DNA of 64,000 nucleotides, from sequence record PZ154897.1; one strand, 5' to 3'. The notes beneath the pieces were generated by a model. The model had not been told where the DNA came from, did no database searches, and saw nothing but the letters and a program-made list of their open reading frames with translations. The stretch is from a phage. Every line of letters starts with the position of its first letter. The first letter of the stretch is position 1. The position numbers were made by a program, and so were the translations under genes. Below, in pieces: positions 1,007 to 63,870 of the stretch.

Positions 1007-1467
1007 TAATAAAGGTCCTCAGAGTAAAGTTCTTTTTCACTACCACCACGTTCAATACGCACTTGTCCAGCATAAGTTGCAATAATCATTGCTTCTTCAC
1101 GTGTCCAATAATTACTATATTGGTCAATAAACCCTTGGTCATCATCACAAACTTGCTGAGTAACTAATTGGGGTTTAACTACATCTAAAACTGCTGCCAT
1201 ATCTTTAGAATAATGACGAGCACCCGGAATAATAAGAGTTCGTCCATCTTTTAATTTAAAACGGTTGGCTGCGCAAACAATCCGTCGTTGGTACTTTTGG
1301 TTTTCATCCCAGTATGCAGACTGCCAACAGATTTCCGGAACTTCTGCAAGAATATCTTCTTCTGTGCATTTATAACCATGTGCTTTAAATTTTTCAACAA
1401 GACTTTCTGGAGTCTCACGAGATAAAGGAACATTCAGCATTTTTAAACGATTAATAAATGGATTCAT
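1006..1467 (-). CDS. hypothetical protein (153 aa)
   Basis: ORF; overlaps neighbours by 1-4 nt. Confidence 0.55.
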
Positions 1468-1793
1468 TTAAACCATCCTTTAATACGCTGCCATAAAGTT
1501 TTCTGTTGAGCTTTGTTAACACCAATTGAGCGAATAACTGGTTGAGATTCCTGGAATTCTTTATAATCAGCAAGGTAAATTTCGTAAGCTGCATCCGTAA
1601 ATGAACTTATCGCTGCCATAAAATTATTGCGAATACCTACTGGAGCATCTTTACTTTCACGAATAATCATGTATTTACCGGTCTTAATCTTTACGATAGT
1701 TCCAAGATAAGCTCCATGGTACCAGATATCCCACCCCTCTTGAGTGGGTTCTGCACAACGACGAAGTTCATTGATAATTTCTAACTTGTTCAT
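1464..1793 (-). CDS. hypothetical protein (109 aa)
   Basis: ORF immediately downstream of motA. Confidence 0.55.
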
Positions 1794-1803
1794 TATTTAT
1801 TCC

Positions 1804-2439
1804 TCACAGTTCAGATGCTACAGTAATTACAGCTTCAATGTTTTCTGCCGAGCGTTTAATGTCAAGATACACATTACCGTTTTTAGCGATTTTACATGAC
1901 ATTCCGATATCAGTAAATTTCTGAATATGATGTTCCATCATTTTGTATCCAAAAATTCGCATATTTCCATTGTTGTTAATTTCAAAATTACGAATTCCGT
2001 GAGTGCGTTTTTCTAAAATAGCAAGATAGTTACTACGATAAGTTTCAACCTTTTTAAGAACAAATCCATTTTCATCTAAAAGTTTTAACATGAAGTCTTT
2101 ATCTTCTTCCATATCAGAAGTAATCTCGCGAGCTTTACGAGTTGCTCGTTTTTTCAGCAGTTCAGGAGCGTTTTCCTGCGCGTATAAAGTTGCCGCATTT
2201 GAAATAATATCCTGAGCTTCACCTGTAATGATTAATCCATCACCAGATTTCTCTACCAGGCCTTTTTTAATCAATACCCCAATATTACTATTAACTACTG
2301 CATTACCTAAATCTGGATGCACCTCACGAACTTCTGCAGCTGTAATGAAATCTTTCTTAGCAATGGTAATTAAAATCGCAGCAGTTTTTTCATTCAGAAC
2401 ATCGTTAGAAGCTTTGATGATGTAAGTTACTTTAGACAT
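1804..2439 (-). CDS. motA: MotA, activator of middle transcription
   Basis: 211-aa ORF, length and sequence as recalled for T4 MotA; synteny next to gene 52. Confidence 0.85.
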   Translation of the reverse strand: MSKVTYIIKASNDVLNEKTAAILITIAKKDFITAAEVREVHPDLGNAVVNSNIGVLIKKGLVEKSGDGLIITGEAQDIISNAATLYAQENAPELLKKRATRKAREITSDMEEDKDFMLKLLDENGFVLKKVETYRSNYLAILEKRTHGIRNFEINNNGNMRIFGYKMMEHHIQKFTDIGMSCKIAKNGNVYLDIKRSAENIEAVITVASEL

Positions 2440-2460
2440 TTTCTAATCTCCGTAATTCTG

Positions 2461-2490
2461 TATCAGTAGTTGATAGTTGTATAGTACCAC
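2461..2490 (-). promoter_or_regulatory. conserved -10/leader module (tggTACTATAcaactatcaactac) upstream of motA, no clear -35
   Basis: same ~30-bp module recurs at 6057, 13451, 32432, 60915, 62351. Confidence 0.4.
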
Positions 2491-2519
2491 AGTATGCTTT
2501 GGTCGGCTCTCCCTAAAAT

Positions 2520-2669
2520 TTACTGCATGACTGTGATAACTGTCATAATAACACGTTGAATTCCGAATGCAAGAAGACCTCCTGCTACGGCTTGAACAAC
2601 ACCTAAACCCGCCAGTAAAATACTACCGGATACTAATGCAGCGCTTGTAATACCTATGAATGGACTCAT
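2520..2669 (-). CDS. small hydrophobic peptide (49 aa), start overlaps gene 52 stop
   Basis: hand-translated: ATG at 2669 overlapping TGA of gene 52 (ATGA); continuous ORF to TAA at 2520. Confidence 0.45.
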   Translation of the reverse strand: MSPFIGITSAALVSGSILLAGLGVVQAVAGGLLAFGIQRVIMTVITVMQ

Positions 2670-3998: not shown

Positions 3999-4139
3999 TT
4001 ACCATACTAGTGAATGTAGTGCCATAATAACATCAGAAATGAAAAGCACGACTTGAATTAATCCGAACATTACTCCATAATATAGTGCTATCAATAAAAT
4101 AGCAAGGGCTACCGAGTAGCCCAAGATTTTCTTAATCAT
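3999..4139 (-). CDS. small membrane peptide (46 aa)
   Basis: hand-translated; ATG overlaps ac stop; ends 5 nt before gene 52 ATG. Confidence 0.45.
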   Translation of the reverse strand: MIKKILGYSVALAILLIALYYGVMFGLIQVVLFISDVIMALHSLVW

Positions 4140-4287
4140 TAGATAACAACGCAAATGTTAAATATGCACACATACCCTGGGCTAAAGCTTGTGAAAACAC
4201 ACTGCTAGCATCGATACAGATAGTTAAAACACATGCTACTATCCAACAAATAAATGAAATAACTCCTAATAGTTTTGCGATATTCAT
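4132..4287 (-). CDS. ac: Ac-like membrane peptide (51 aa)
   Basis: 51-aa hydrophobic ORF with GAGGA SD, between stp and 52 as in T4. Confidence 0.7.
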   Translation of the reverse strand: MNIAKLLGVISFICWIVACVLTICIDASSVFSQALAQGMCAYLTFALLSND

Positions 4288-5221: not shown

Positions 5222-5418
5222 TATTTTACACCATTCCAAATTGTTTCAACCACAGATTTCAAACCATTTTGGTGAATATCCATTCCGACAACCGCCATCA
5301 AATAGATTCCAACCACAACTGAACCCAAGGCGAAAATCAGCATGAAAATGAATAAAGCTGGAAAAATATTATCGAAAAACCATTCCATAAATGTAAAAGC
5401 ACTGCGTTTACGCTTCAT
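5221..5418 (-). CDS. small membrane protein (65 aa)
   Basis: ORF-track 5221..5439 trimmed to ATG with GAGGA SD. Confidence 0.5.
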   Translation of the reverse strand: MKRKRSAFTFMEWFFDNIFPALFIFMLIFALGSVVVGIYLMAVVGMDIHQNGLKSVVETIWNGVK

Positions 5419-5425
5419 ATTTTCC

Positions 5426-5539
5426 TCACATAAATCCAAAGTAAGCGTTTAATACATCAATCATTAAAATGATTGGGAATATACTTAAAACTACTAGTAT
5501 TATAACTACATTCCATATAGCTTTAACAATCTTTTTCAT
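5426..5539 (-). CDS. small membrane peptide (37 aa)
   Basis: internal ATG of ORF 5426..5674; GGAGG SD; early promoter directly upstream. Confidence 0.5.
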   Translation of the reverse strand: MKKIVKAIWNVVIILVVLSIFPIILMIDVLNAYFGFM

Positions 5540-5559
5540 TTTCTGTTCCTCCGTAGTTG

Positions 5560-5598
5560 ATAGGGTAATAATACCACAGAGGAACAGTCTTGTAAACA
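5560..5598 (-). promoter_or_regulatory. T4-type early promoter (GTTTAC -35 / TATTAT -10) with flanking 9-bp inverted repeat
   Basis: minus strand reads GTTTACaagactgttcctctgtggtATTATTA; near-identical to cassette at 60905-60962. Confidence 0.6.
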
Positions 5599-5604
5599 AC
5601 TTTT

Positions 5605-5703
5605 TTAAAAATATTCGTAATAAATGTGAATACCAACTACTACTGCTGAAACTTGCGCAACCCACCATGCACAAGCAATAAGTACAGAATTCAAAATTTT
5701 CAT
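5605..5703 (-). CDS. micro-ORF, hydrophobic peptide (32 aa)
   Basis: hand-translated; GAGG SD; ATGA overlap with upstream micro-ORF. Confidence 0.4.
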   Translation of the reverse strand: MKILNSVLIACAWWVAQVSAVVVGIHIYYEYF

Positions 5704-5786
5704 AATAACCTCATCACAAAAGTAAATGTTAAACAAATTAATGGAATACTAATTAACCAAACGAAACACCACCATAATGAACTCAT
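5700..5786 (-). CDS. micro-ORF, hydrophobic peptide (28 aa)
   Basis: hand-translated; ATGA overlap with stop of ORF 5783..6046. Confidence 0.4.
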   Translation of the reverse strand: MSSLWWCFVWLISIPLICLTFTFVMRLL

Positions 5787-6046
5787 AGTTCAATCTCAGC
5801 GATTTTCATTTCATTACTATTAATAGCCGCTTTAAGACTATCTGAAAGAATTACATTCCAGTGGTCATTCATATGACCATTAACTAAGCGTGTAATTTCT
5901 TCGGGAGTTGAAAAATAAGGCGTATCAGACTCCCAATGCGATAGTCCCAAGCGAGTATAAATCATACCTTCATCACCGCTAGAATATTCAACTGACACAA
6001 ACTCATCAGTTATTTTATGTTTAGCGTAATAAAATTTAAATTTCAT
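5783..6046 (-). CDS. hypothetical protein (87 aa)
   Basis: ORF with GGAGG SD and early promoter upstream. Confidence 0.55.
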   Translation of the reverse strand: MKFKFYYAKHKITDEFVSVEYSSGDEGMIYTRLGLSHWESDTPYFSTPEEITRLVNGHMNDHWNVILSDSLKAAINSNEMKIAEIEL

Positions 6047-10351: not shown

Positions 10352-10384
10352 TAATTATACCACATCCTTGTGGTAAAGTAAACT
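10352..10384 (-). promoter_or_regulatory. T4-type early promoter (GTTTAC -35 / tggTATAAT -10)
   Basis: minus strand GTTTACtttaccacaaggatgtggTATAAT; 29/30 identical to promoter at 57950. Confidence 0.65.
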
Positions 10385-12200
10385 ATTGGCTCATCCATTC
10401 TTTACGAAGGTCAGCATTATCTCCCATGAGCATTTCAAAAAGCTCTTTCCAGTTCTCAGGAAGTTTAACAACATCATAAACTGGGTTTTGAATCATCTCA
10501 CGATATTCAGATTTTTCCAAAGAGCCAAGTCCCTTAATATAACGGATGCTATGTTTAGGTAGAGCATCTTTGGCACTCTCATATTCAGCGACTGTATAAA
10601 ACCATTCTTGTTTTTTACCGACCTGAGCGATGATTACAGGAGTTTTGACAAAGCGAATTCTTCCTTGTTCAAACAGTTCTGGCCAATTACTAAAAAATCC
10701 GAGCAGAGAAGGATAAATGCTTCCTAGACCATCATGGTCAGCATCGGTCATAATTGCAATATTATGATAATTCAAGTTTTCGGCTTTTTCACCAAGAACT
10801 AATCCAGTGATTGCGCAAATATCAAACAGTTCTTTGTTTTTAAGCATATCAGCATATGACATACCCCAACTGTTGAGAACTTTACCACGTAATGGATAAC
10901 CACCATGAAGTTCTTTATCACGAACATCAATAAGATATCCAATAGCAGAATCACCCTCAGTCAAGAAAAGAGTAGTATCAGCATCTTTACCACAAAGATT
11001 CGCTTTAATATGTTTATGAACCTTAGCTTTAGAAGCCTTTTTAGCTGCTTTAGTTTCTGCTGCTTTTTCTGCCGCCAATTTACGAGCAAGGGCAGCTTCA
11101 ATGATTGGCATTAAAATTGCTTCATTATTTAAAATAGCACGTGAAATCTTTTTAGCATCAAGCTGAATATGACTACGGATTTCACCAAATGGAGAAGTAA
11201 GTCGTTCTTTAGTTTGAGAATCAAATCGCATGTTTTTCATATCACGGACAAACATAACGATAGTCAAACATTCTTTGACACGTGCTTTAGTTACATCAAT
11301 TTTGAATTTACGTTTGATTTGTGGAATAAGGTCTTCACAAATATCATCCATAACGCAGTCAATGTGATGGCCACCATTCTTAGTATGAATGTTATTGACG
11401 TATGTTAATTGACGAAAACCATCCGGTGAACGACCAACAGCAATAGAACAATTTTCTTGTTCTTGAACGATAGCATGTTCATCATACTGTCGTGCATATT
11501 TCTTAAAATTACCCTGAACCTTTTTACCATTAAAGGTAAATTGAATATCAGGATAAACTACTGCAAGTGTCTGGAGACGATCCAGTGTAATGTCAAGATA
11601 AACTTGAGATAGCTCATTAGTTTCAAATGACATAAAATCAGGAATGAAAGTAACGCGAGTTCCTTTCCATTTTCCAGGAATAGTTTCCCACGATTTATTT
11701 TCCATGCCATTTGAACAACGAACTACAATATTATTTTGACCATCGCCGGTTTCACCGACAAACATCACAGAAAAAATATTAGTTAAACTAGAACCAACAC
11801 CATTCATACCACCAGTGACGCGTTCTTTATCATCACCGAAGTTACCACCTGCTTTTGGAATAGTCCATGCAGCAACTGGACCAGGAATTTCTTCACCGGT
11901 AGGTGTTTTAACCATCGCCTGTGGAATACCGCGACCGTTATCTTCAACTGTTACTTGATTGTTTTTAATAGTAACATTAATTTTATTTGCGAATTTAAAC
12001 TTAGTACGAATACCTTCATCTACTGAGTTATCGATAATTTCATCAATAAGCTTAACAAGACCAGGTACATACTGAACACTTTCCCATTTACCAAACAGAA
12101 AGCGCTCATGCATTTCATTAGCTGAAGAGCCAATGTACATGCCGCTACGCTTTTTGATATGTTCAATATCGCTCAGAATTTTAATTTCATTCTTAATCAT
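10383..12200 (-). CDS. 39: DNA topoisomerase II large subunit (GyrB-like ATPase), contiguous 39+60
   Basis: 605 codons from first ATG (ORF track starts at GTG 12203); GHKL ATPase and TOPRIM-like motifs; single uninterrupted ORF. Confidence 0.95.
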   Translation of the reverse strand: MIKNEIKILSDIEHIKKRSGMYIGSSANEMHERFLFGKWESVQYVPGLVKLIDEIIDNSVDEGIRTKFKFANKINVTIKNNQVTVEDNGRGIPQAMVKTPTGEEIPGPVAAWTIPKAGGNFGDDKERVTGGMNGVGSSLTNIFSVMFVGETGDGQNNIVVRCSNGMENKSWETIPGKWKGTRVTFIPDFMSFETNELSQVYLDITLDRLQTLAVVYPDIQFTFNGKKVQGNFKKYARQYDEHAIVQEQENCSIAVGRSPDGFRQLTYVNNIHTKNGGHHIDCVMDDICEDLIPQIKRKFKIDVTKARVKECLTIVMFVRDMKNMRFDSQTKERLTSPFGEIRSHIQLDAKKISRAILNNEAILMPIIEAALARKLAAEKAAETKAAKKASKAKVHKHIKANLCGKDADTTLFLTEGDSAIGYLIDVRDKELHGGYPLRGKVLNSWGMSYADMLKNKELFDICAITGLVLGEKAENLNYHNIAIMTDADHDGLGSIYPSLLGFFSNWPELFEQGRIRFVKTPVIIAQVGKKQEWFYTVAEYESAKDALPKHSIRYIKGLGSLEKSEYREMIQNPVYDVVKLPENWKELFEMLMGDNADLRKEWMSQ

Positions 12201-12225
12201 CACTTATCCTCGTTTGGTTTCGGGA

Positions 12226-12254
12226 ATATTATACTCCAGTAATCATAAAGCTAA
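12226..12254 (-). promoter_or_regulatory. possible middle-type promoter for gene 39 (MotA-box-like AGCTTTA, 12 bp, TATAAT)
   Basis: minus strand tAGCTTTAtgattactggagTATAAT; box has one mismatch to TGCTT. Confidence 0.35.
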
Positions 12255-12270
12255 AGGCCCGAAGGCCTTT
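12253..12270 (-). other. UUCG-tetraloop RNA hairpin
   Basis: aaaggcc-cgaa-ggccttt immediately after lipoprotein gene stop. Confidence 0.55.
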
Positions 12271-12530
12271 TATTTAAAACGAATAGTCGAATCCTTGAAG
12301 AATAGTCCAGAACATACTGTTCCTTCTACTTTCTGCCCAGTAGGTCCAATAGCACGAAATCCAGTATGTTGGAAATCATTTTCAGAGCAACCGAACCAAT
12401 TATATCCAGTGATTTCAATATTAGTAAAACCACTTGAAGACAAAACTTTAGTTGCATTATCAGCATCAGTACATCCTACTAAAGACACTGCTAATACTAA
12501 TGCTGCAATAGAACGATTAATATATTTCAT
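12270..12530 (-). CDS. putative lipoprotein (86 aa)
   Basis: N-terminal signal peptide ending LVGC (lipobox). Confidence 0.55.
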   Translation of the reverse strand: MKYINRSIAALVLAVSLVGCTDADNATKVLSSSGFTNIEITGYNWFGCSENDFQHTGFRAIGPTGQKVEGTVCSGLFFKDSTIRFK

Positions 12531-12532
12531 AA

Positions 12533-12709
12533 TTACCCTTTAAGCAAGTCGTAAAATCCACCATTCACATGCTTAGGAGCGGAAACTAACCGAATAGCAA
12601 TCCGATGACAATCAGGACATACATCAGTATCCCTTTCAGAAATTTTCTTGATTTTTTCGTATTCTTTTGCACAGTCTTTGGATTGACATTTATAATCATA
12701 AAGCGGCAT
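12533..12709 (-). CDS. small zinc-ribbon protein (58 aa)
   Basis: hand-translated; CxxC...CxxC pattern; AAGGA SD; fills gap between ORFs. Confidence 0.45.
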   Translation of the reverse strand: MPLYDYKCQSKDCAKEYEKIKKISERDTDVCPDCHRIAIRLVSAPKHVNGGFYDLLKG

Positions 12710-25528: not shown

Positions 25529-26155
25529 TTAACCTCTATTCATAAAAGCATTAAAAATTTGGTCATCAATAGAAACATTTACTTTAGACTGTTTTTCTGA
25601 TGGTAATTCATATCCACATATTACAATTTTGTGATCAATATCAAAATACACAGAAGCAATATGATTAATGATGTTTTCAGTAAAGTCTAAATCAACATCA
25701 ATATCTTTTTGACCAAAGCCCAAAGGATAAATAATGCGAGTAATTCGATTATCTTTAACAAAGATTCCACCGACATACTCTGTACTGCGTTTAAAGTCTA
25801 CACGCCGACGAAATGAAAAATATTCAGGCTCTTTATGAGCTCGGCTCATAGGGCACAACGAATAACTAGAATAAGAGATGTCAAATCCTACGCCTTCAAT
25901 ATGAACTAAATTGTCATGATTAAACCAATTATAATCATATGCCAAGTCCATTAGATTGTCATATGTGAAAGGCACCGGATTAACATCATTGGTCACAAGC
26001 ATATAATTAGCAACTGCTATAATTTCATTATTTTTAACGAATACAAACCGTGGCTGATGCGAATGGCCTGGACCTGCGTTTTCACGATTAATGATATAAC
26101 ACTGGGCACCTTTATATTTGTACGTGTCTTTACACTTGTGCATTTGATAAAGCAT
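25529..26155 (-). CDS. hypothetical protein (208 aa)
   Basis: ORF. Confidence 0.55.
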   Translation of the reverse strand: MLYQMHKCKDTYKYKGAQCYIINRENAGPGHSHQPRFVFVKNNEIIAVANYMLVTNDVNPVPFTYDNLMDLAYDYNWFNHDNLVHIEGVGFDISYSSYSLCPMSRAHKEPEYFSFRRRVDFKRSTEYVGGIFVKDNRITRIIYPLGFGQKDIDVDLDFTENIINHIASVYFDIDHKIVICGYELPSEKQSKVNVSIDDQIFNAFMNRG

Positions 26156-26448
26156 TATTCACCTACCACTTCAGCGATGATATTTTTATTATTAAAGTTT
26201 TTATCGCAATACAGAACATAATTATACTGCATTACACCACCAGACTTAAGTTGTTTTTGCACTTCAGCTTTCATTTCAGGACGATCACGCTCAACGATAT
26301 TCATAATATCTGCTTCAATTTGAGTTTCAACCTCAGTCTGATCCGCAGTCATAGACCATTCGCACAAATCTTTATCATAACCTGCCATAGCAGGCTGAGC
26401 AGCACAAGAAGCTAAAGCAAAAATTGCAGCAAAAACAAATTTTTTCAT
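26155..26448 (-). CDS. sp: Spackle-like periplasmic protein (97 aa)
   Basis: internal ATG with GGAG SD; signal peptide MKKFVFAAIFALASCAAQPAMA; size as T4 Sp. Confidence 0.65.
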   Translation of the reverse strand: MKKFVFAAIFALASCAAQPAMAGYDKDLCEWSMTADQTEVETQIEADIMNIVERDRPEMKAEVQKQLKSGGVMQYNYVLYCDKNFNNKNIIAEVVGE

Positions 26449-30044: not shown

Positions 30045-30891
30045 AATCAACCGCTATTGGATGAATAGCATTAAACTTATGAAACGCTTCTGATTTTTCT
30101 TTGCGCGAAACACACATGCGAAGAACCTTTAATGGCTCGTCTTCTTCACCCAACGATTTTCGTTTTTCAATATTAGAAGTTTTCCAACGAGCTTGCTCTG
30201 GAAACTCTTTATTGATTTGCTCAAGAGCTCTATTATGTTTTGAATTACTACGAATTGAGCTGCATCCACCGGGAGCCTGCGCTTTTCCAGATACAACCAA
30301 ATATTTGAACAAGGCCAAATGCGGATAACCTTGATTAATTAAATTGAGAAATGCATACATATCTTCGCATAAATCAATTTTTCCATACCCAATTTGTTCT
30401 GTTGTAAGTTTTCCAAGGTCATACCATGTATTCGTGAATCCATATGAATTTTCACGGTAATTACCCCAAGATGAAGTAATTTTAAAAATAGGTAGACGAG
30501 CATGGCCATGATAATACCCGCAATCCATGGCATCTTCAACGTATTGAATCAATTCATAGAACTGCTCACGGGTTAACTGATTAATTTTATCTACGCAGCG
30601 ACGATCATCTTTCTTTCGCATTGAACTCATACGAATAGTAGTATCATCATCAATCATCCAAATTCGTTGACCTGCATACATATCAGTAATCGCTTTACGA
30701 GTACCAGCAATTCCATTGACATCATCAGGAATAGTTATAATTTTAGCTCTAGACCCATAGGCATCATAATAAGCTTTTTCTTCATGTTCACGCACTACAA
30801 TATGGGGTTCATAATCAGTCGGAAACATATCAAGGGCAGAAACTGCCCCTACACGTTGATAACTTGGAATTACAAATTGAATCATTTCCAC
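30043..30891 (-). CDS. glycosyltransferase with DxD motif, candidate HMC-DNA glucosyltransferase (not T4 beta-gt)
   Basis: 282-aa ORF between 42 and uvsX; MIDDDT motif; T4 beta-gt as I recall it is 351 aa and unlike this sequence. Confidence 0.6.
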   Translation of the reverse strand: MEMIQFVIPSYQRVGAVSALDMFPTDYEPHIVVREHEEKAYYDAYGSRAKIITIPDDVNGIAGTRKAITDMYAGQRIWMIDDDTTIRMSSMRKKDDRRCVDKINQLTREQFYELIQYVEDAMDCGYYHGHARLPIFKITSSWGNYRENSYGFTNTWYDLGKLTTEQIGYGKIDLCEDMYAFLNLINQGYPHLALFKYLVVSGKAQAPGGCSSIRSNSKHNRALEQINKEFPEQARWKTSNIEKRKSLGEEDEPLKVLRMCVSRKEKSEAFHKFNAIHPIAVD

Positions 30892-31622
30892 TCACCGTTA
30901 TAATCTTTTTTCATAATATGAGTTTCGCCAGTATTCCACCAATGATCAACCAAGTAAAAATGACGAGAATATACATGAAGACTTCCAACATTCCATATAA
31001 TAGAACCTGCTTTATACTGACGAGTTGAATCGCCTGCATTCAAATCAGATACTAATTTATCTAATACGTATTTTTGCCATGCATAATCATTACGGAATCC
31101 GAAGACCACGTCATTTGAGCGCATGCTTACTACTGCATTGACTTTCTTATCACGAATCAGGTACTGTACTGTATTAGTACACATGAAATCTGACATGCCA
31201 TCTTTATTGTAGTCAAACTGCATAGATGGACGAGTATAAATCATGATACCACGTCGAGAATCAGGATTTTGACCAAGTTCAGCTAAACACATGTCATATT
31301 GAGCATAGTTATCTTCTGACCAGATAGCCCAACCATAATTCGAGTTAATTTCACCTTTAGAAGATGCTACCTGTTGCCAAATCTTTGGTGTTTCACCTGG
31401 AATATCTTTAACAAACAGACTTTGAGACTTGTACCATTCAAGTTCACGCTGAATGTATTCATCATTAAGAGCGCCAAAAATAAACGGTTCATCTGCTACA
31501 AATGATGCGCCAATAATTTCAATAGTTTTAACACCAGTTTTATCAACTACGAAATCTTTTTCCTTTAATGCAGTTCCCAAATGAAGACGGATTTCTTCAA
31601 CTGTCATAGAGTCACTAATCAT
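30882..31622 (-). CDS. 42: dCMP hydroxymethylase
   Basis: 246-aa ORF, T4 gp42 length; thymidylate-synthase-like fold. Confidence 0.92.
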   Translation of the reverse strand: MISDSMTVEEIRLHLGTALKEKDFVVDKTGVKTIEIIGASFVADEPFIFGALNDEYIQRELEWYKSQSLFVKDIPGETPKIWQQVASSKGEINSNYGWAIWSEDNYAQYDMCLAELGQNPDSRRGIMIYTRPSMQFDYNKDGMSDFMCTNTVQYLIRDKKVNAVVSMRSNDVVFGFRNDYAWQKYVLDKLVSDLNAGDSTRQYKAGSIIWNVGSLHVYSRHFYLVDHWWNTGETHIMKKDYNGEWK

Positions 31623-31775: not shown

Positions 31776-32027
31776 TCATTCCTTCTCTCTGATGATAATT
31801 ACCTGATTTGGCTGCGCAGACTTTTTAGTTTCACCTGCAATTGACCAAATAAATGTAATAAACCAACCAATAATTGACCAGTTAAACAGTAAAGATGTGA
31901 AAAAGATTCCTACTGTCGATTTTGACCCACGCATCAAGGCGATAAACCATGGAAGCATGTATATAATAATAGCCAACACGCCTGAAACTAAAACCACAAA
32001 AATTGAACCTGCTACTAAAGTTTCCAT
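31776..32027 (-). CDS. imm: Imm superinfection immunity membrane protein
   Basis: 83-aa ORF with two hydrophobic helices; T4 Imm length and position. Confidence 0.8.
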   Translation of the reverse strand: METLVAGSIFVVLVSGVLAIIIYMLPWFIALMRGSKSTVGIFFTSLLFNWSIIGWFITFIWSIAGETKKSAQPNQVIIIREKE

Positions 32028-32034
32028 GTTTTCC

Positions 32035-32415
32035 TCACTTAGTCAAATTTTTTACGCATGAATTATAAGAATTTACTACATACTCCATCGGAGCATTTTT
32101 ACCGGTACGCCATTGGTAATTATTAGCCCAATTTGCCCAAAGTTCAGCACAGTAGTTTTCAATTTTTTCTTCACGTGTAATCACATCTGAATTACGATAT
32201 GCTTGGGCAGATTCATCTGGACGAATAGCTTCGTCAAAATTCGCCTGCATTTGTTCTACTGTCTGTTTTGGAGCCTCTTTATAACACTTAACATTAGGAT
32301 TATAAAATTTGCTTGAACAGTTTACAATTTTTCCTACATCAGACTGATTTACTACTGGTCCTTGAGCTACACAACCAGTAAGACCCAATGCAATAACCAA
32401 AATAGCGATTTTCAT
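32035..32415 (-). CDS. putative lipoprotein (126 aa)
   Basis: internal ATG with GGAGA SD; signal peptide with lipobox LTGC. Confidence 0.55.
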   Translation of the reverse strand: MKIAILVIALGLTGCVAQGPVVNQSDVGKIVNCSSKFYNPNVKCYKEAPKQTVEQMQANFDEAIRPDESAQAYRNSDVITREEKIENYCAELWANWANNYQWRTGKNAPMEYVVNSYNSCVKNLTK

Positions 32416-32445: not shown

Positions 32446-32480
32446 TTATATAGTACCATAAAGGAACCGGGATGTAAACC
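32446..32480 (-). promoter_or_regulatory. T4-type early promoter (GTTTACA -35 / TACTAT -10)
   Basis: minus strand GTTTACAtcccggttcctttatggTACTATA then conserved leader. Confidence 0.6.
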
Positions 32481-32566: not shown

Positions 32567-32584
32567 AGGGACCCGGAGGTCCCT
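32567..32584 (-). terminator. intrinsic terminator after gene 43 (hairpin plus U-tract)
   Basis: gggacc-cgga-ggtccc followed on mRNA by UUUUUCA. Confidence 0.65.
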
Positions 32585-32596
32585 AGATTTATTCTA

Positions 32597-35293
32597 TCAG
32601 CCAAACAGGAAGTCTAACGAAGCTTTTTCCTCATAGTCCATACCTGCCGATTCACACATGCCCGCAAGCGGTTTAACAAACGATTTTTGGAACAAAGTTG
32701 AGTAGTCAATCCAAGACAGTACATCAGAACGAATTTCTTTTGGAAGTTCCGTACCCGACGGCCAAGCAATGCACTTATCACCAAATGGATTTCCTTCACG
32801 TAATGGAAGAACCATTACCTTATTTCCATCCAAAATTGGAGCTACACCTAAACCATTAACAGCTCGACGATAAGTTAGCACCCCACGAATGTGGAACGGG
32901 CATTTAAATCCTGGCCAACCTTTATCATCATATTTCGCTATATCGTTCGCAGTTTTTACTTCAGCAATAACTTTATAGTCAAGTTGACGATATTCTTTCT
33001 CAAAGTTCTTGTAGTATTCTTGGACAGACTCTTCACCTTCCTGAAGAATACGACGAATACTTTCTTCGAGAGCTTCTTGTACTGCTTTTGGTGTTGAACT
33101 CTGCTGAGTTTCCATACCCATGATTTTTAGATGTGGTTCAGCAAATCGTTTATCTTCCATATCATAAACGTTCAGAGCATAACGCTTTTTCGCTTTCCAA
33201 AATCCACCAACACCCTTTGAACCAAGTGGAGGGCAAGAAATAGCTTCACGGTCCATATGCATCAGATGCTCGCGGTTATTCATATAATCACATAACTCAC
33301 GATATGCAACATCAATCATAGGTTCCATCTTTTTCTTACCAAACTGATTCATGAATTCAACTAAATCGTTCTGCTCTTTGAATCGGTCAAGACCAACTTT
33401 TTCAACAACTTTATCTACGCAAACATATACCGAATCAGTATCACCTGCTGCGATGAAATCTTCACCATTAGTTCCACACACTTTATTCAGATACTCATTA
33501 ATTTTACGAGCAATCCACTGAATACCGACTTGACCGAAAATTGTGATAGCAGTAGCATTTCGCAAATCATAGTAACGGAAATGAATATTACCAAGAGCAC
33601 CATAAAGACTGTTAATAAGAATTTTACGGTTCAGTTGATTTGTGTTAGCAAGTGTAGCCGCTTTTTCACATTCTTCAATCAGACTATTGAGAACGGATTC
33701 GGTGTAATTCGATAGTTCATTTAAGAAATCATCATTGAACTTAACATATCGTTCAACTTCTGGTTTAGTTGAACAAGACCCTGCGCCTTTCATAATAATC
33801 TTTTTAATAGCTTCGGCATTCATTTCTTCAGCGAACATTTTCTTTTTCCAATCTTTACGCTGGAAAAATACTTTAGCGATTTCCTTTGGAATGATACCTT
33901 CTTGATGCTTATCATACATCCATCCATTCGGAGAGCAAGAATATTCATCACTCGGTTTAGGAGCTGTTCCTGCAATATATTCATGAATTGGATGAACTTT
34001 AAACTGCCCACGAATAGTCTCAGGACTAATGTTAACCTGACGAATAATGCTAGGATACAGAGACGTCAAGTCAAAACTCATAATATATCGACGAGCAATT
34101 GGTTTAGGTTCAAACACAAATGCACCCGGAAAACTCTGTTTAACGTGCGAACCCTGTTGAGGAATAACCTTATGTTCACCTTTCAATGAGTTAAAAATAA
34201 TAGCATCCCAAGTTTTAATAGGACTCATTACACCAGAAAAAGGCATTTTAGCGTAATAAGACATACTTAAAACTAGATCGATAAACCCACGAATTTTATC
34301 AATTGCTTGAACTGATTCTACGTCAATGATGTTATAACTAATGTATCGTTGATGATTAGTCTCACGAAGTTTATTAATAGGACCATCGTACGGCAATTTA
34401 CCTTTTTTGGTTTCATGTTGAGCAACTGATTCCAAAGAGAACGATGGCAAATTAGTAAATGCGAACTTCTTGTATAAATCTAAATAATCAAGAATAGATA
34501 CGCCATCAATAGAATAAATTTCTTTGCTACCGTACATATTTTGAATTAGTTTAGATTTTACTCGACCGATTGGAGAGAAACGTTTCATACTGCGTTCGCC
34601 GAGAACCATTTTAACACGGTTCATGATATACGGAACGTCAAACCCCTCAATATTCCAACCAGTAAAAATAGCAGGTCGTTTCTGTTCCCAGAGATTGATA
34701 TATTCCATGAGCATATCACGCTCATTATCGAATGGCATATAAATTACTCGGTCAAGAATTTCTTGAGGAACTTCATCACCACCTTCACAGTCAAGCTTAG
34801 CAGCTAACTTTGCATCCCATTTTGATACTGAACCGTACATTGAATTCAACAAATCAAAGACGTAAAAACGGTCGTCAATTGAATCATAATGAGTGATAGC
34901 ATCAATTTCATATTCTGCTTTCATTGGGTCAGGAAATTTATCGCCAGTAACCTCAATGTCACAATTAGCTACACGAACAAATTTTCGGTCATAAACAATT
35001 TCTGAACCATACGTATCACTGATATAAGCGAGTTTAAAATCGTTCATACCGAGAGCTTCGAGACCGATGTCTTCCATTCGCTTCATCCAGTCTCGTGCAT
35101 CTTTCATTGATGGAAATTTTTGAGGAGCGCAATTTTTACCATAAATGTCTTTGTATTTTGACTCTTCCTTACAATGCCTAAACATAGTCGGAAGATATTC
35201 TACTTCGCGAGTACGTTCCTTTCCATTTTCATCAATATAACGTTCAACAATATTATTTCCGACTGTTTCGATAGAGATATAAAATTCTTTCAT
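32597..35293 (-). CDS. 43: DNA polymerase (family B) with 3'-5' exonuclease
   Basis: 898-aa ORF; N-terminus MKEFYISIETVGNNIVERYIDENGKERTREVEY as recalled for T4 gp43; DTDS polymerase motif. Confidence 0.97.
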   Translation of the reverse strand: MKEFYISIETVGNNIVERYIDENGKERTREVEYLPTMFRHCKEESKYKDIYGKNCAPQKFPSMKDARDWMKRMEDIGLEALGMNDFKLAYISDTYGSEIVYDRKFVRVANCDIEVTGDKFPDPMKAEYEIDAITHYDSIDDRFYVFDLLNSMYGSVSKWDAKLAAKLDCEGGDEVPQEILDRVIYMPFDNERDMLMEYINLWEQKRPAIFTGWNIEGFDVPYIMNRVKMVLGERSMKRFSPIGRVKSKLIQNMYGSKEIYSIDGVSILDYLDLYKKFAFTNLPSFSLESVAQHETKKGKLPYDGPINKLRETNHQRYISYNIIDVESVQAIDKIRGFIDLVLSMSYYAKMPFSGVMSPIKTWDAIIFNSLKGEHKVIPQQGSHVKQSFPGAFVFEPKPIARRYIMSFDLTSLYPSIIRQVNISPETIRGQFKVHPIHEYIAGTAPKPSDEYSCSPNGWMYDKHQEGIIPKEIAKVFFQRKDWKKKMFAEEMNAEAIKKIIMKGAGSCSTKPEVERYVKFNDDFLNELSNYTESVLNSLIEECEKAATLANTNQLNRKILINSLYGALGNIHFRYYDLRNATAITIFGQVGIQWIARKINEYLNKVCGTNGEDFIAAGDTDSVYVCVDKVVEKVGLDRFKEQNDLVEFMNQFGKKKMEPMIDVAYRELCDYMNNREHLMHMDREAISCPPLGSKGVGGFWKAKKRYALNVYDMEDKRFAEPHLKIMGMETQQSSTPKAVQEALEESIRRILQEGEESVQEYYKNFEKEYRQLDYKVIAEVKTANDIAKYDDKGWPGFKCPFHIRGVLTYRRAVNGLGVAPILDGNKVMVLPLREGNPFGDKCIAWPSGTELPKEIRSDVLSWIDYSTLFQKSFVKPLAGMCESAGMDYEEKASLDFLFG

Positions 35294-62398: not shown

Positions 62399-63412
62399 TC
62401 ATTTATAATAACTTCGATGGTTTTCAAGATAGACCTTCTCAAGGAAGTCATCCCAGAAACTCATGTCTACTGTTTTAGGCATACCGTTCTTAGAAGCTTC
62501 AGTAGATGCTGCTTCTACTTGATCGACCACATCTTCCAAAAACTCTTGAACGGTTTTAAATGGATGTTTACCCAACTTCACGTCGAGAATAAATGGAGCG
62601 TCTTGAAGTGGATAAACCAAGTCACCAGTTTTGTAAATTTCCAATAGTTGAAGTCCACCACGACAAGCATGGCTCAGAGCTTTCCAGTCGATGCCTTCAT
62701 TGGCTTCGGCCTTACGAGCGCGTTCACCATATTCAGCATTTAATTTGTTCAGTGACTGCTTAAGCTCAATAAGAGAAAGCGTTGTCTGATATTTACGACC
62801 CAATACAGTATAGAACGTTTGTGGGCCTGTTTTCTCATGATCATGGAACACCCATTCACAGAATTCGTTTTTTGGAAGACGATGCTTAATATCTTCAACT
62901 TTAGTACGACGCTGCTTAATGGAACCGTCTTCTTGGTAATCAACCCATTGCTCAGGGATTTGATTAACTACTTTCAATACATCACGTAATGCAGCCAAAC
63001 GAGAACCCTTGACACCGTATTTAGAAGCTTGCTTACGGACATATCCTAAATAGGATTTCATGTTAGTCGTATAAAAACGAGAACGGTTGTCTTGAATAAA
63101 CTTCCACACATCAGGCAAATCAGATTTAACCACTAGTTCAGGTGGAGTGTGAAGCATATCCAATGCTACAGTTTCACCATCTGCTGCTAATTTAAAGAAA
63201 TACTTAAGACTATACAATTCGTGGTCAATATCATCTTTAGTGTTTTTAGATGATGTGTTGTTGGTGTTTTTACTCATGTGCTCTTTGACGTTTCCGATAA
63301 GAATATCACGAGCAGGAGGAACAAAAATTTCTTTAAAATCTACATCAGATTCTGGAGTAGAAGTTCCATAAAGATGACTACCAAAATAGCTTTTCATTAC
63401 TGTTTTCATCAT
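62399..63412 (-). CDS. Pol-beta-superfamily nucleotidyltransferase-like protein
   Basis: 337-aa ORF; N-terminal FGSHLYGTSTPESDVDF fits the GS-x10-DxD NTase signature, with a downstream acidic residue (ALDMLH). Confidence 0.55.
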   Translation of the reverse strand: MMKTVMKSYFGSHLYGTSTPESDVDFKEIFVPPARDILIGNVKEHMSKNTNNTSSKNTKDDIDHELYSLKYFFKLAADGETVALDMLHTPPELVVKSDLPDVWKFIQDNRSRFYTTNMKSYLGYVRKQASKYGVKGSRLAALRDVLKVVNQIPEQWVDYQEDGSIKQRRTKVEDIKHRLPKNEFCEWVFHDHEKTGPQTFYTVLGRKYQTTLSLIELKQSLNKLNAEYGERARKAEANEGIDWKALSHACRGGLQLLEIYKTGDLVYPLQDAPFILDVKLGKHPFKTVQEFLEDVVDQVEAASTEASKNGMPKTVDMSFWDDFLEKVYLENHRSYYK

Positions 63413-63870
63413 TCAGCCTTATATTCAATAACAGGACATACTTTAGCTTTACGCGCTTTTAAAAATTCGACGATAATAGATTTCTTGGGTTGAATAGGTG
63501 GTAAACCTTTATACGCCCTATCAATATTTTCTACATGTAAAGCATAATCCTTTTTCCATTTATAATCTTTATATTTTTCATGCAGCTGTGCAGGAATAAC
63601 AAATGAACCAATAATAAGTAAAACAAGCAAAATGGCAAGTACAAATGCTGATGGAATAAGAGTCCATAAACTACCAAAAATAAGCCATTTCTGTATGATT
63701 TCTGCGCAGATGATAGTTAGACCTGCGAGTATAGTACATCCGAAAAAAGAAACGAAAAATGTAGGGATAACAATAGACCAAAAGTATGCACACAGTGTCT
63801 TAGGTCGTTTCCATTCATCATTAAACATTTTGAATAATTTATAGTGCCAAGAGCTTTCATTAATAATCAT
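63409..63870 (-). CDS. membrane protein (153 aa)
   Basis: several hydrophobic helices; AAGGA SD. Confidence 0.55.
   Translation of the reverse strand: MIINESSWHYKLFKMFNDEWKRPKTLCAYFWSIVIPTFFVSFFGCTILAGLTIICAEIIQKWLIFGSLWTLIPSAFVLAILLVLLIIGSFVIPAQLHEKYKDYKWKKDYALHVENIDRAYKGLPPIQPKKSIIVEFLKARKAKVCPVIEYKAE

Follow-up and report, generated by a model that had tools for sequence, protein, structure and literature searches.

The early region of a phage genome (sequence record PZ154897.1), of which a stretch of 64,000 nucleotides (hereafter, the window) was analyzed, encodes two small secreted proteins with lipobox-type signal peptides, and the locus raises the question of what these envelope proteins do during infection. 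A preliminary description of the sequence had grouped them with a Spackle-like protein and with Imm, and had suggested superinfection exclusion or receptor masking as their role. The region was 99.9% identical to that of Shigella phage SP21535 and 93–98% identical to hundreds of Tequatrovirus genomes, and the T4 gene order is reproduced; judged by its sequence, the window is a Tequatrovirus (T4-like). The four flagged open reading frames (ORFs), all on the minus strand, are recognizable as the known T-even early genes 39.1, sp, imm.1, and imm, which all encode envelope proteins (Table 1), and every coordinate and sequence feature given for them earlier proved correct. Spackle (the product of sp) and Imm are characterized proteins; gp39.1 and Imm.1 are 'hypothetical' proteins or 'lipoproteins' in the databases. 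The view that both lipoproteins are uncharacterized was borne out, as no publications on T4 gp39.1, imm.1, or DUF5481, the family of Imm.1, were found in the literature, and both proteins are listed as 'Unknown' in the CRISPRi-ART tables.

Our analysis adds three points: gp39.1 is unlikely to be a receptor mask and belongs to a very large family hidden by the T4 reference, Imm.1 is a conserved companion of Imm, and the gene model behind a published knockdown result for 39.1 is wrong. The joint explanation that we favor, and consider moderately probable, is that these are T-even envelope genes, that Imm.1 serves as an accessory of Imm, and that gp39.1 is a domain acting at the membrane surface, not on a receptor. 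The expected early expression was confirmed for the RNAs of 39.1, imm.1, sp, and imm in T4 infection (PMC9697503). In the same study (supplements 4 and 6), sp and imm.1 gave both early RNA and early protein, gp39.1 was an early RNA with a late-accumulating protein, and both Imm.1 and gp39.1 were detected by mass spectrometry in T4-infected cells. Together, RNA and mass spectrometry establish 39.1 and imm.1 as real expressed products.

The exclusion proposal stood for one of the two lipoproteins: imm.1 received real support from a conserved linkage to imm, whereas receptor masking by gp39.1 had to be abandoned as unlikely. Imm was correctly placed beside the second lipoprotein, since imm starts 8 nucleotides past the imm.1 stop codon. 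By tblastn, 502 records contained Imm.1 at ≥95% identity and 155 did so at ~33%; Imm was found in 502 Tequatrovirus-type and 156 Mosigvirus-type records (1,006 phage records in all). By record count, imm.1/imm amounted to 502/502 for the Tequatrovirus type and 155/156 for the Mosigvirus type. The Imm.1 family (phrog_1754) adjoins imm in seven Tevenvirinae genera and in three gene orders. Jiaodavirus, Moonvirus, Gelderlandvirus, and Yersinia phage MHG19 encode a secreted protein between 43 and imm (43-lipoprotein-imm-42), which is a lipoprotein in the three genera and not in MHG19. Gaprivervirus SP18 and Dhakavirus VR5 have the lipoprotein gene downstream of imm instead, as imm-(small ORF)-lipoprotein. 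The pair is relocated beside sp in the Mosigvirus Escherichia phage JS09 (61.4, imm.1, imm, sp, 61.2). Linkage maintained through three gene orders is good evidence of functional coupling of Imm.1 with Imm.

The window Imm.1 is a full-length member of DUF5481/phrog_1754, matching DUF5481 with 239.2 bits over profile positions 1–103 of 103. The Pfam family DUF5481 covers T4 and RB69 types only, and none of the Moonvirus, Gaprivervirus, and Jiaodavirus lipoproteins tested matched it. These three are joined at the PHROG level, and they were treated as Imm.1 family because their matches to phrog_1754 were full-length (E = 2e-48, 5e-47, and 2e-15, respectively). The Dhakavirus, Gelderlandvirus, and Karamvirus proteins were assigned to phrog_1754 only via their similarity to those three, and the MHG19 protein, which matched no PHROG, is tied to the family through alignment A5 alone. 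Direct homology between DUF5481 and the Moonvirus, Jiaodavirus, and Gaprivervirus lipoproteins was tried and not accepted, as the hhalign alignments covered only the signal peptide and ~8 mature residues. The mature residues that aligned form the motif C-x-x-Q-G-x-V-V...[VI]-G-[KQ], and pairwise z-scores of the mature proteins versus DUF5481 were marginal (≤3.9).

In the window, the minus-strand order is gene 43, a strong hairpin with a T run, a promoter-like site, imm.1, imm, an ORF of 49 amino acids, and gene 42. The hairpin and the promoter-like site, both consensus matches, suggest a separate imm.1-imm-ORF49-42 transcription unit. The imm.1 start was set at the ATG at 32415, which is preceded by a GGAG Shine-Dalgarno sequence; an upstream TTG has none. 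Imm matched PF14373 with 58.2 bits (gathering score 27.9), was 96–100% identical to annotated Imm proteins, and has its own GAGG ribosome-binding site. The 49-amino acid ORF, located directly before gene 42, has its start codon within the same ATGA as the imm stop. This ORF is unannotated in the T4 RefSeq record; a homologue of 47 amino acids with the same 4-nucleotide overlap with imm is present in Shigella phage SP18, and the ORF may be a third member of the imm unit. The C-terminal half of Imm.1 is predicted to be helical and its Cys89/Cys120 pair, which may form a disulfide, is invariant (alignment A4); the structural model suggests a C-terminal helical hairpin that could be closed by these two residues. 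A fold search with this poor model against the PDB returned noise, with no hit at E ≤ 0.001.

Imm blocks DNA entry at the inner membrane. Imm.1 would be an accessory part of the Imm superinfection-immunity module, located in the periplasm or at the outer membrane, co-transcribed with imm, and inherited together with it through several genome rearrangements. It may stabilize the barrier that the tail tube or DNA meets in the periplasm, or extend it. Such an imm-linked module is proposed here and is not an established family; the linkage that defines it was conserved, CC31 excepted. This phage is the first of several points that weigh against an accessory role. Karamvirus CC31, an Enterobacter phage, carries its lipoprotein gene between 43 and 42 (positions 1162..1602 of locus L077) with no imm beside it, so the imm.1-imm partnership is not obligate; Enterobacter phages were outside the ten commonest organism names in the Imm tblastn result. 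The two Imm.1 relatives with signal peptidase I-type leaders (see below) likewise count against an obligate pairing. Plasmid-borne imm alone reportedly gives immunity, as Lu and Henning are said to have found in 1989. The Imm.1 model, built from four sequences, was of low confidence, with a predicted local distance difference test (pLDDT) value of 55.7. Finally, in CRISPRi-ART the knockdown of imm.1 was neutral in single-phage infection (−0.77, 'Not Fit'), an assay whose reach does not extend to exclusion.

Some of these points also fit a reading in which Imm.1 is independent of Imm and the adjacency reflects a shared 'moron island' of non-essential early envelope genes between 43 and 42. CC31, with its lipoprotein retained and no imm alongside, speaks for such an island, as do the third small membrane ORF in it and the neutral imm.1 knockdown next to a 'Fit' score for imm. 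Against it stand the joint relocation of the pair to a site between 61.4 and sp in Mosigvirus, its persistence where the order is inverted (SP18, VR5), and the spacing of only 8 nucleotides in the window. We regard independence of the two proteins as possible, though somewhat unlikely.

Two further observations concern the imm region. The genes imm.1, imm, and sp are contiguous in JS09 (positions 1495..2530 of locus L014), and imm abuts an sp homologue in Providencia phage PSTCR6 (1468..1934 of locus L020); exclusion genes separated by 5.3 kb in T4 are clustered in one island in these two phages. In the T4 RefSeq record NC_000866 (26636..27013), imm.1 is named 'iduronate sulfatase', a name also carried in at least one other phage record. 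The product is a DUF5481 lipoprotein of 125 amino acids, and searches of Pfam, NCBIfam, PHROG, and PDB gave no support for that name.

Gene 39.1 requires a corrected gene model. T4 RefSeq annotates 39.1 with 65 amino acids and without a signal peptide, and 39.2 with 45 amino acids. Window positions 12270..12709 were aligned with NC_000866 positions 5398..5839. In the latter, SLINS replaces SLVGC in 39.1 and an extra T breaks the frame, and 39.2 contains one further extra T. The erroneous version is confined to the legacy entries M89919, X06220, AF158101, and NC_000866. Resequenced T4 records (including HM137666, KJ477684-6, MT984581, OL964735, and OZ209023) are all 2 nucleotides shorter and have intact ORFs of 86 and 58 amino acids. 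The legacy differences are apparent sequencing errors that truncate 39.1 and 39.2. In the CRISPRi-ART study, T4 gp39.1 appears as a PHROG singleton and is scored 'Not Fit'. Three of the five scored 39.1 guides were examined; they match the erroneous sequence only and lie downstream of the true start, whose codon precedes the RefSeq start by 63 nucleotides. The score is uninformative, as the guides fit only the wrong sequence. Users of T4 RefSeq work with a wrong model of 39.1 and 39.2, which affects guide design, proteomics databases, and family clustering.

Mature gp39.1 comprises 67 amino acids and was modeled by AlphaFold2 (pLDDT 77.9) as one helix (residues 23–32) packed on a four-stranded sheet. 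Because only ~2 residues separate the lipid-bearing cysteine from the first helix, the modeled domain must lie against the membrane. In an alignment of 196 relatives drawn from two deep searches, 182 sequences had both Cys48 and Cys73, 9 had neither, and 5 had only one of them, a covariation typical of a periplasmic disulfide. Conservation is also strong at T41, G42, Y43, D52, T56, F58, G70, K79, T82, and R84, which points to one conserved partner at the membrane surface.

The family was found to be widespread. By tblastn, 39.1 occurs in 1,071 phage records, from phages of many enterobacteria, including Escherichia and Klebsiella, and of Aeromonas, Stenotrophomonas, Erythrobacter, Brevundimonas, and Burkholderia (jumbo phage BcepSauron). 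An exhaustive profile search returned 2,246 clusters at 50% identity (E ≤ 1e-3), 1,126 of them at E ≤ 1e-10. A search of 185,579 species genomes with narrow motif patterns gave three loci, all on contigs of metagenome-assembled genomes. By these counts, the 39.1 family is very large and essentially phage-borne. It has no Pfam family and matches only phrog_902, a PHROG without assigned function. Sequence and profile searches found no relatives in the PDB, and Foldseek of the model against the PDB gave no hit at E ≤ 0.001 (best E = 1.6); against BFVD, it retrieved only 39.1 family members, from Enterobacter, Agrobacterium, Klebsiella, and Edwardsiella phages. A conserved neighbor gene was found neither in four distant phages nor in 56 IMG/VR loci, where the only recurrent neighbors were the T4-like syntenic 39, 39.2, and cef. 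In metagenomic relatives (P0158, P0111, P0093, P0121, and P0130), the lipobox is replaced or the domain is doubled. P0158 has a prepilin-type leader, G followed by FTLVEM, after a Cys-rich N-terminus, P0111 carries the domain in tandem duplication, and some relatives have an N-terminal transmembrane helix in place of the lipobox. Given these alternative anchors, the common denominator of the family is a membrane-tethered periplasmic domain.

These properties argue against a receptor-specific mask. T4 uses OmpC/lipopolysaccharide as its receptor and T6 uses Tsx; the T4 and T6 copies of 39.1 are ≥98.8% identical to that of the window. The protein is near-invariant among T-even phages with different receptors, it is kept across very different hosts, being ~50% identical in Burkholderia and Aeromonas phages, and no adhesin gene adjoins it. 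A generic exclusion role may still apply, though nothing in this analysis points to it specifically. The prediction is a compact alpha+beta domain, locked by a disulfide and sitting immediately on the membrane, whose most likely ligand is a periplasm-facing component of the envelope that is conserved either across Proteobacteria or among large virulent phages. We infer that gp39.1 works in the periplasm, at the membrane surface, as an effector whose target is a conserved envelope component. Its most plausible class is generic envelope protection or Spackle-like action on a conserved phage or host component, and our leading guess is protection or exclusion of a generic kind.

A more specific version of this idea would have gp39.1 control cell-wall or envelope integrity, for example by inhibiting or sequestering a muralytic enzyme, a protease, or an envelope machine in the manner of Spackle, and thereby guard the long infections by large virulent phages against premature lysis, lysis from without, or vesiculation. 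The restriction of the family to large virulent phages of Gram-negative hosts, its conservation over the host range, and the late accumulation of the protein from an early RNA would suit this function, and the compact disulfide-locked domain with its conserved residues fits the binding of a conserved partner. It nevertheless remains rather unlikely in this specific form, as gp39.1 resembles none of the known lysozyme, transglycosylase, or protease inhibitors and 39.1 is not linked to lysis genes.

A mask of the T5 Llp or T1 Cor type, which binds the periplasmic face of the phage's own receptor and closes it allosterically, is very unlikely, although gp39.1 has the same general build (a small lipoprotein of ~60–67 residues with one disulfide, predicted to be periplasmic on the outer membrane) and although 39.1 RNA is early. 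Llp and Cor genes adjoin the gene for the receptor-binding protein and track the receptor; 39.1 adjoins a topoisomerase gene and has no conserved neighbor. The 98.8% identity of the T4 and T6 copies to that of the window despite the different receptors of these phages, the ~50% identity in Burkholderia and Aeromonas phages, and the lack of sequence or fold similarity to any PDB entry do not fit such a mask.

A bolder form of our joint explanation is that T-even immunity is a two-component envelope system of the inner-membrane protein Imm and an Imm.1-family lipoprotein, its hitherto overlooked partner in the periplasm or at the outer membrane, and that gp39.1 founds a large phage-specific family of membrane-surface effectors targeting an envelope machine found throughout the Proteobacteria. 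In that reading, the 39.1 family went unnoticed in T4 because the reference truncates the gene. We put this form forward only tentatively.

All of these readings presuppose that gp39.1 and Imm.1 are exported lipoproteins, for which lipid modification and sorting are predicted. The N-terminus of gp39.1 is MKYINRSIAALVLAVSLVGC followed by TD, with Lys2, Arg6, and the cysteine at position 20; that of Imm.1 is MKIAILVIALGLTGC followed by VAQ, with Lys2 and the cysteine at position 15. The lipoprotein rule applied was PROSITE PS51257 (a positive N-terminal region, a hydrophobic region, and [LVI][ASTVI][GAS]C with the cysteine at position 15–35). Both proteins (...SLVGC20 and ...GLTGC15) satisfied it, in agreement with the earlier assignment. 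The rule matched 8 distinct ORFs of the window, among them three spurious plus-strand ORFs, two small membrane proteins, and Spackle; by itself, the pattern is poorly specific in this AT-rich window and is weak evidence. The two lipoboxes are credible because they are conserved among relatives. Cys20 was kept in 178 of the 196 relatives of gp39.1 (91%), each with a canonical [LVI][ASTVG][GAS]C box; position +2 was Thr in 84% and Ser in 9%, and position +3 was mostly Asp or Asn. The Imm.1 lipobox L-[TSA]-G-C recurred in eight genera (Tequatrovirus, Mosigvirus, Jiaodavirus, Moonvirus, Gelderlandvirus, Karamvirus, Gaprivervirus, and Dhakavirus). Since +2 is not Asp in either protein (Thr in gp39.1, Val in Imm.1), the E. 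coli Lol rule predicts the inner leaflet of the outer membrane.

Exceptions speak to the contrary in both families. The lipid cysteine is absent from two Imm.1 relatives, P0203 and the MHG19 protein, which have signal peptidase I-type leaders. Similarly, ~9% of the gp39.1 relatives lack it and are anchored by a transmembrane or pilin-like segment. Judging by these relatives, the proteins may not strictly need attachment to the outer membrane. That the lipoboxes are incidental, with signal peptidase I cleavage or an uncleaved helix anchor in place of lipid attachment, is very unlikely: the rule also matches spurious ORFs and Spackle, which is experimentally cut after residue 22 and not at Cys15, and a minority of relatives in both families lack the cysteine, but the canonical box with Cys20 in 91% of the 39.1 relatives, the retention of L-[TSA]-G-C across eight genera despite the divergence of Imm.1-type proteins, and the absence of an alternative AxA site near the hydrophobic region in both proteins stand against it. 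Two other window proteins on the minus strand match the lipobox pattern, phrog_2501 (51 amino acids, 4132..4287) and phrog_944 'membrane protein' (139 amino acids, 63409..63828). They are probably not lipoproteins, as additional hydrophobic sequence follows the cysteine and gives them an integral-membrane look.

The third secreted protein had been described as resembling Spackle and as having a cleavable signal peptide. The signal peptide was confirmed; the resemblance was understated, as the ORF is the characterized sp gene itself. Spackle matched PF25676 (T4_Spackle) with 152.5 bits (cut-off 27, E = 4.8e-45) and PDB entry 6x6o with E = 6e-61 over residues 1–97, and it was 96.9% identical to T4 orf 61.3. 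Spackle inhibits the gp5 tail lysozyme from the periplasm (PMC7677548, PMC7650644); its signal peptide comprises residues 1–22, with cleavage after residue 22 determined by N-terminal sequencing of the soluble protein (PMC7650644). A lipobox-like ALASC15 precedes the Ala22 cleavage site (residues 1–15, window positions 26404..26448). Cys15 is kept in Mosigvirus (AVSC) and Jiaodavirus (VSSC) homologues of 50–66% identity, and a distant homologue from a Providencia phage has no equivalent. A lipoprotein as the main form of Spackle was rejected on the basis of the cleavage after residue 22 and the missing cysteine in the distant homologue, and the lipobox-like motif is a curiosity only.

The features are compiled in Table 1. 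The large topoisomerase subunit is encoded by a single fused gene corresponding to the separate genes 39 and 60 of T4, and comparison of the ORF list with T4 records revealed neither a mobA remnant nor a gene 60 bypass region at this site. The gap between the 39.2 stop and the 39.1 start is 2 nucleotides, and goF and cef also lie on the minus strand. The hairpin following 39.1 marks the end of the goF-39.2-39.1 unit, upstream of gene 39. A terminator is annotated at this site in other phage records; a simple terminator scanner missed it because the T run is too short. An antisense ORF (12133..12543, plus strand) was taken as spurious, as the minus-strand product is conserved and was detected by mass spectrometry. 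The PADLOC and NCBIfam libraries gave no meaningful match.

Table 1. Features of the window discussed in the text.
Feature	Position	Strand	Basis
Gene 39.1, prolipoprotein, 86 amino acids	12270..12530	-	ORF; phrog_902, E = 7e-37
39.1 lipobox, L17-V18-G19-C20	12471..12482	-	PS51257; +2 Thr, +3 Asp
Gene imm.1, prolipoprotein, 126 amino acids	32035..32415	-	DUF5481 PF17578, E = 5.4e-72; phrog_1754, E = 5e-44
imm.1 lipobox, L12-T13-G14-C15	32371..32382	-	PS51257; +2 Val
Gene imm, superinfection immunity inner-membrane protein	31776..32027	-	PF14373, E = 7.6e-16; phrog_1039
Two-helix membrane ORF, 49 amino acids	31630..31779	-	phrog_3610, E = 1.3e-25
Promoter-like site TTTACA-17-TACTAT, extended TG	32450..32478	-	Consensus match only
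Gene 43 terminator hairpin	32567..32584	-	Consensus scan and sequence
Gene sp (61.3), Spackle	26155..26448	-	PF25676, E = 4.8e-45; PDB 6x6o, 7cn6
Gene 39.2, zinc-ribbon protein, 58 amino acids	12533..12709	-	PF09723, E = 7e-11
Hairpin AAAGGCC-TTCG-GGCCTTT	12253..12269	-	Read from alignment; immediately 3' of the 39.1 stop codon
Fused topoisomerase gene 39	10383..12203	-	Single ORF of 606 amino acids
Gene 42	30882..31622	-	ORF
Gene 43	32597..35293	-	ORF

That T4 has further envelope proteins will not surprise a specialist; the Imm.1-Imm module and the breadth of 39.1 are cheap to test and could matter. If the accessory role of Imm.1 is true, a lipoprotein partner would offer a concrete handle on the DNA-entry block of Imm, by a two-gene construct, pull-downs, or co-folding. 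Additionally, few accessory envelope proteins of large virulent phages infecting Gram-negative hosts are conserved as widely as gp39.1, and identifying its target could uncover a weakness of the envelope that can be exploited generally.

Among known systems, Llp and Cor are small phage lipoproteins of the lytic phase with one intramolecular disulfide, which are periplasmic on the outer membrane and bind a host envelope protein; their genes adjoin the gene for the receptor-binding protein, and they are specific to one receptor (PMC9586334). T5 Llp and the Cor proteins of T1 and phi80 are similar to gp39.1 in this build, the disulfide being predicted in the latter, but without detectable similarity in sequence or fold. 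Whereas they are found beside the receptor-binding protein and serve a single receptor, 39.1 lies among replication genes (39/39.2) and occurs with many receptors and hosts. The o-spanins (Rz1-type) are also small outer-membrane lipoproteins of phages. However, their genes are late and lie by the lysis cassette, where each is the partner of an i-spanin gene or nested within it, and the proteins are largely unstructured, whereas 39.1 and imm.1 have early RNA and predicted folded products. No i-spanin partner was found near either gene (neighbors 39, 39.2, and goF, and 43, imm, and 42, respectively), and the T4 spanins, pseT.3 and pseT.2, are encoded elsewhere in the genome.

Imm and Imm.1 are neighbors in the same putative operon, with linkage in seven genera. 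They differ in that Imm is a two-helix inner-membrane protein unrelated in sequence to Imm.1, and Imm homologues are widely found without Imm.1. Neither gp39.1 nor Imm.1 significantly matched any named exclusion family in Pfam, PHROG, or NCBIfam. For how the two might work, Spackle offers the best analogy: it is early, small, disulfide-bonded, and periplasmic, and acts on the conserved gp5 lysozyme and not on a receptor. Cleavage by signal peptidase I yields Spackle as a soluble helical bundle, whereas gp39.1 is a predicted alpha+beta lipoprotein. Furthermore, Spackle is confined to T4-like phages (898 records), whereas the 39.1 family is also found in jumbo phages and in phages of alpha- and betaproteobacteria. 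Falling outside the Llp/Cor, spanin, and other named families, gp39.1 and Imm.1 group in a general way with the envelope proteins that phages express early.

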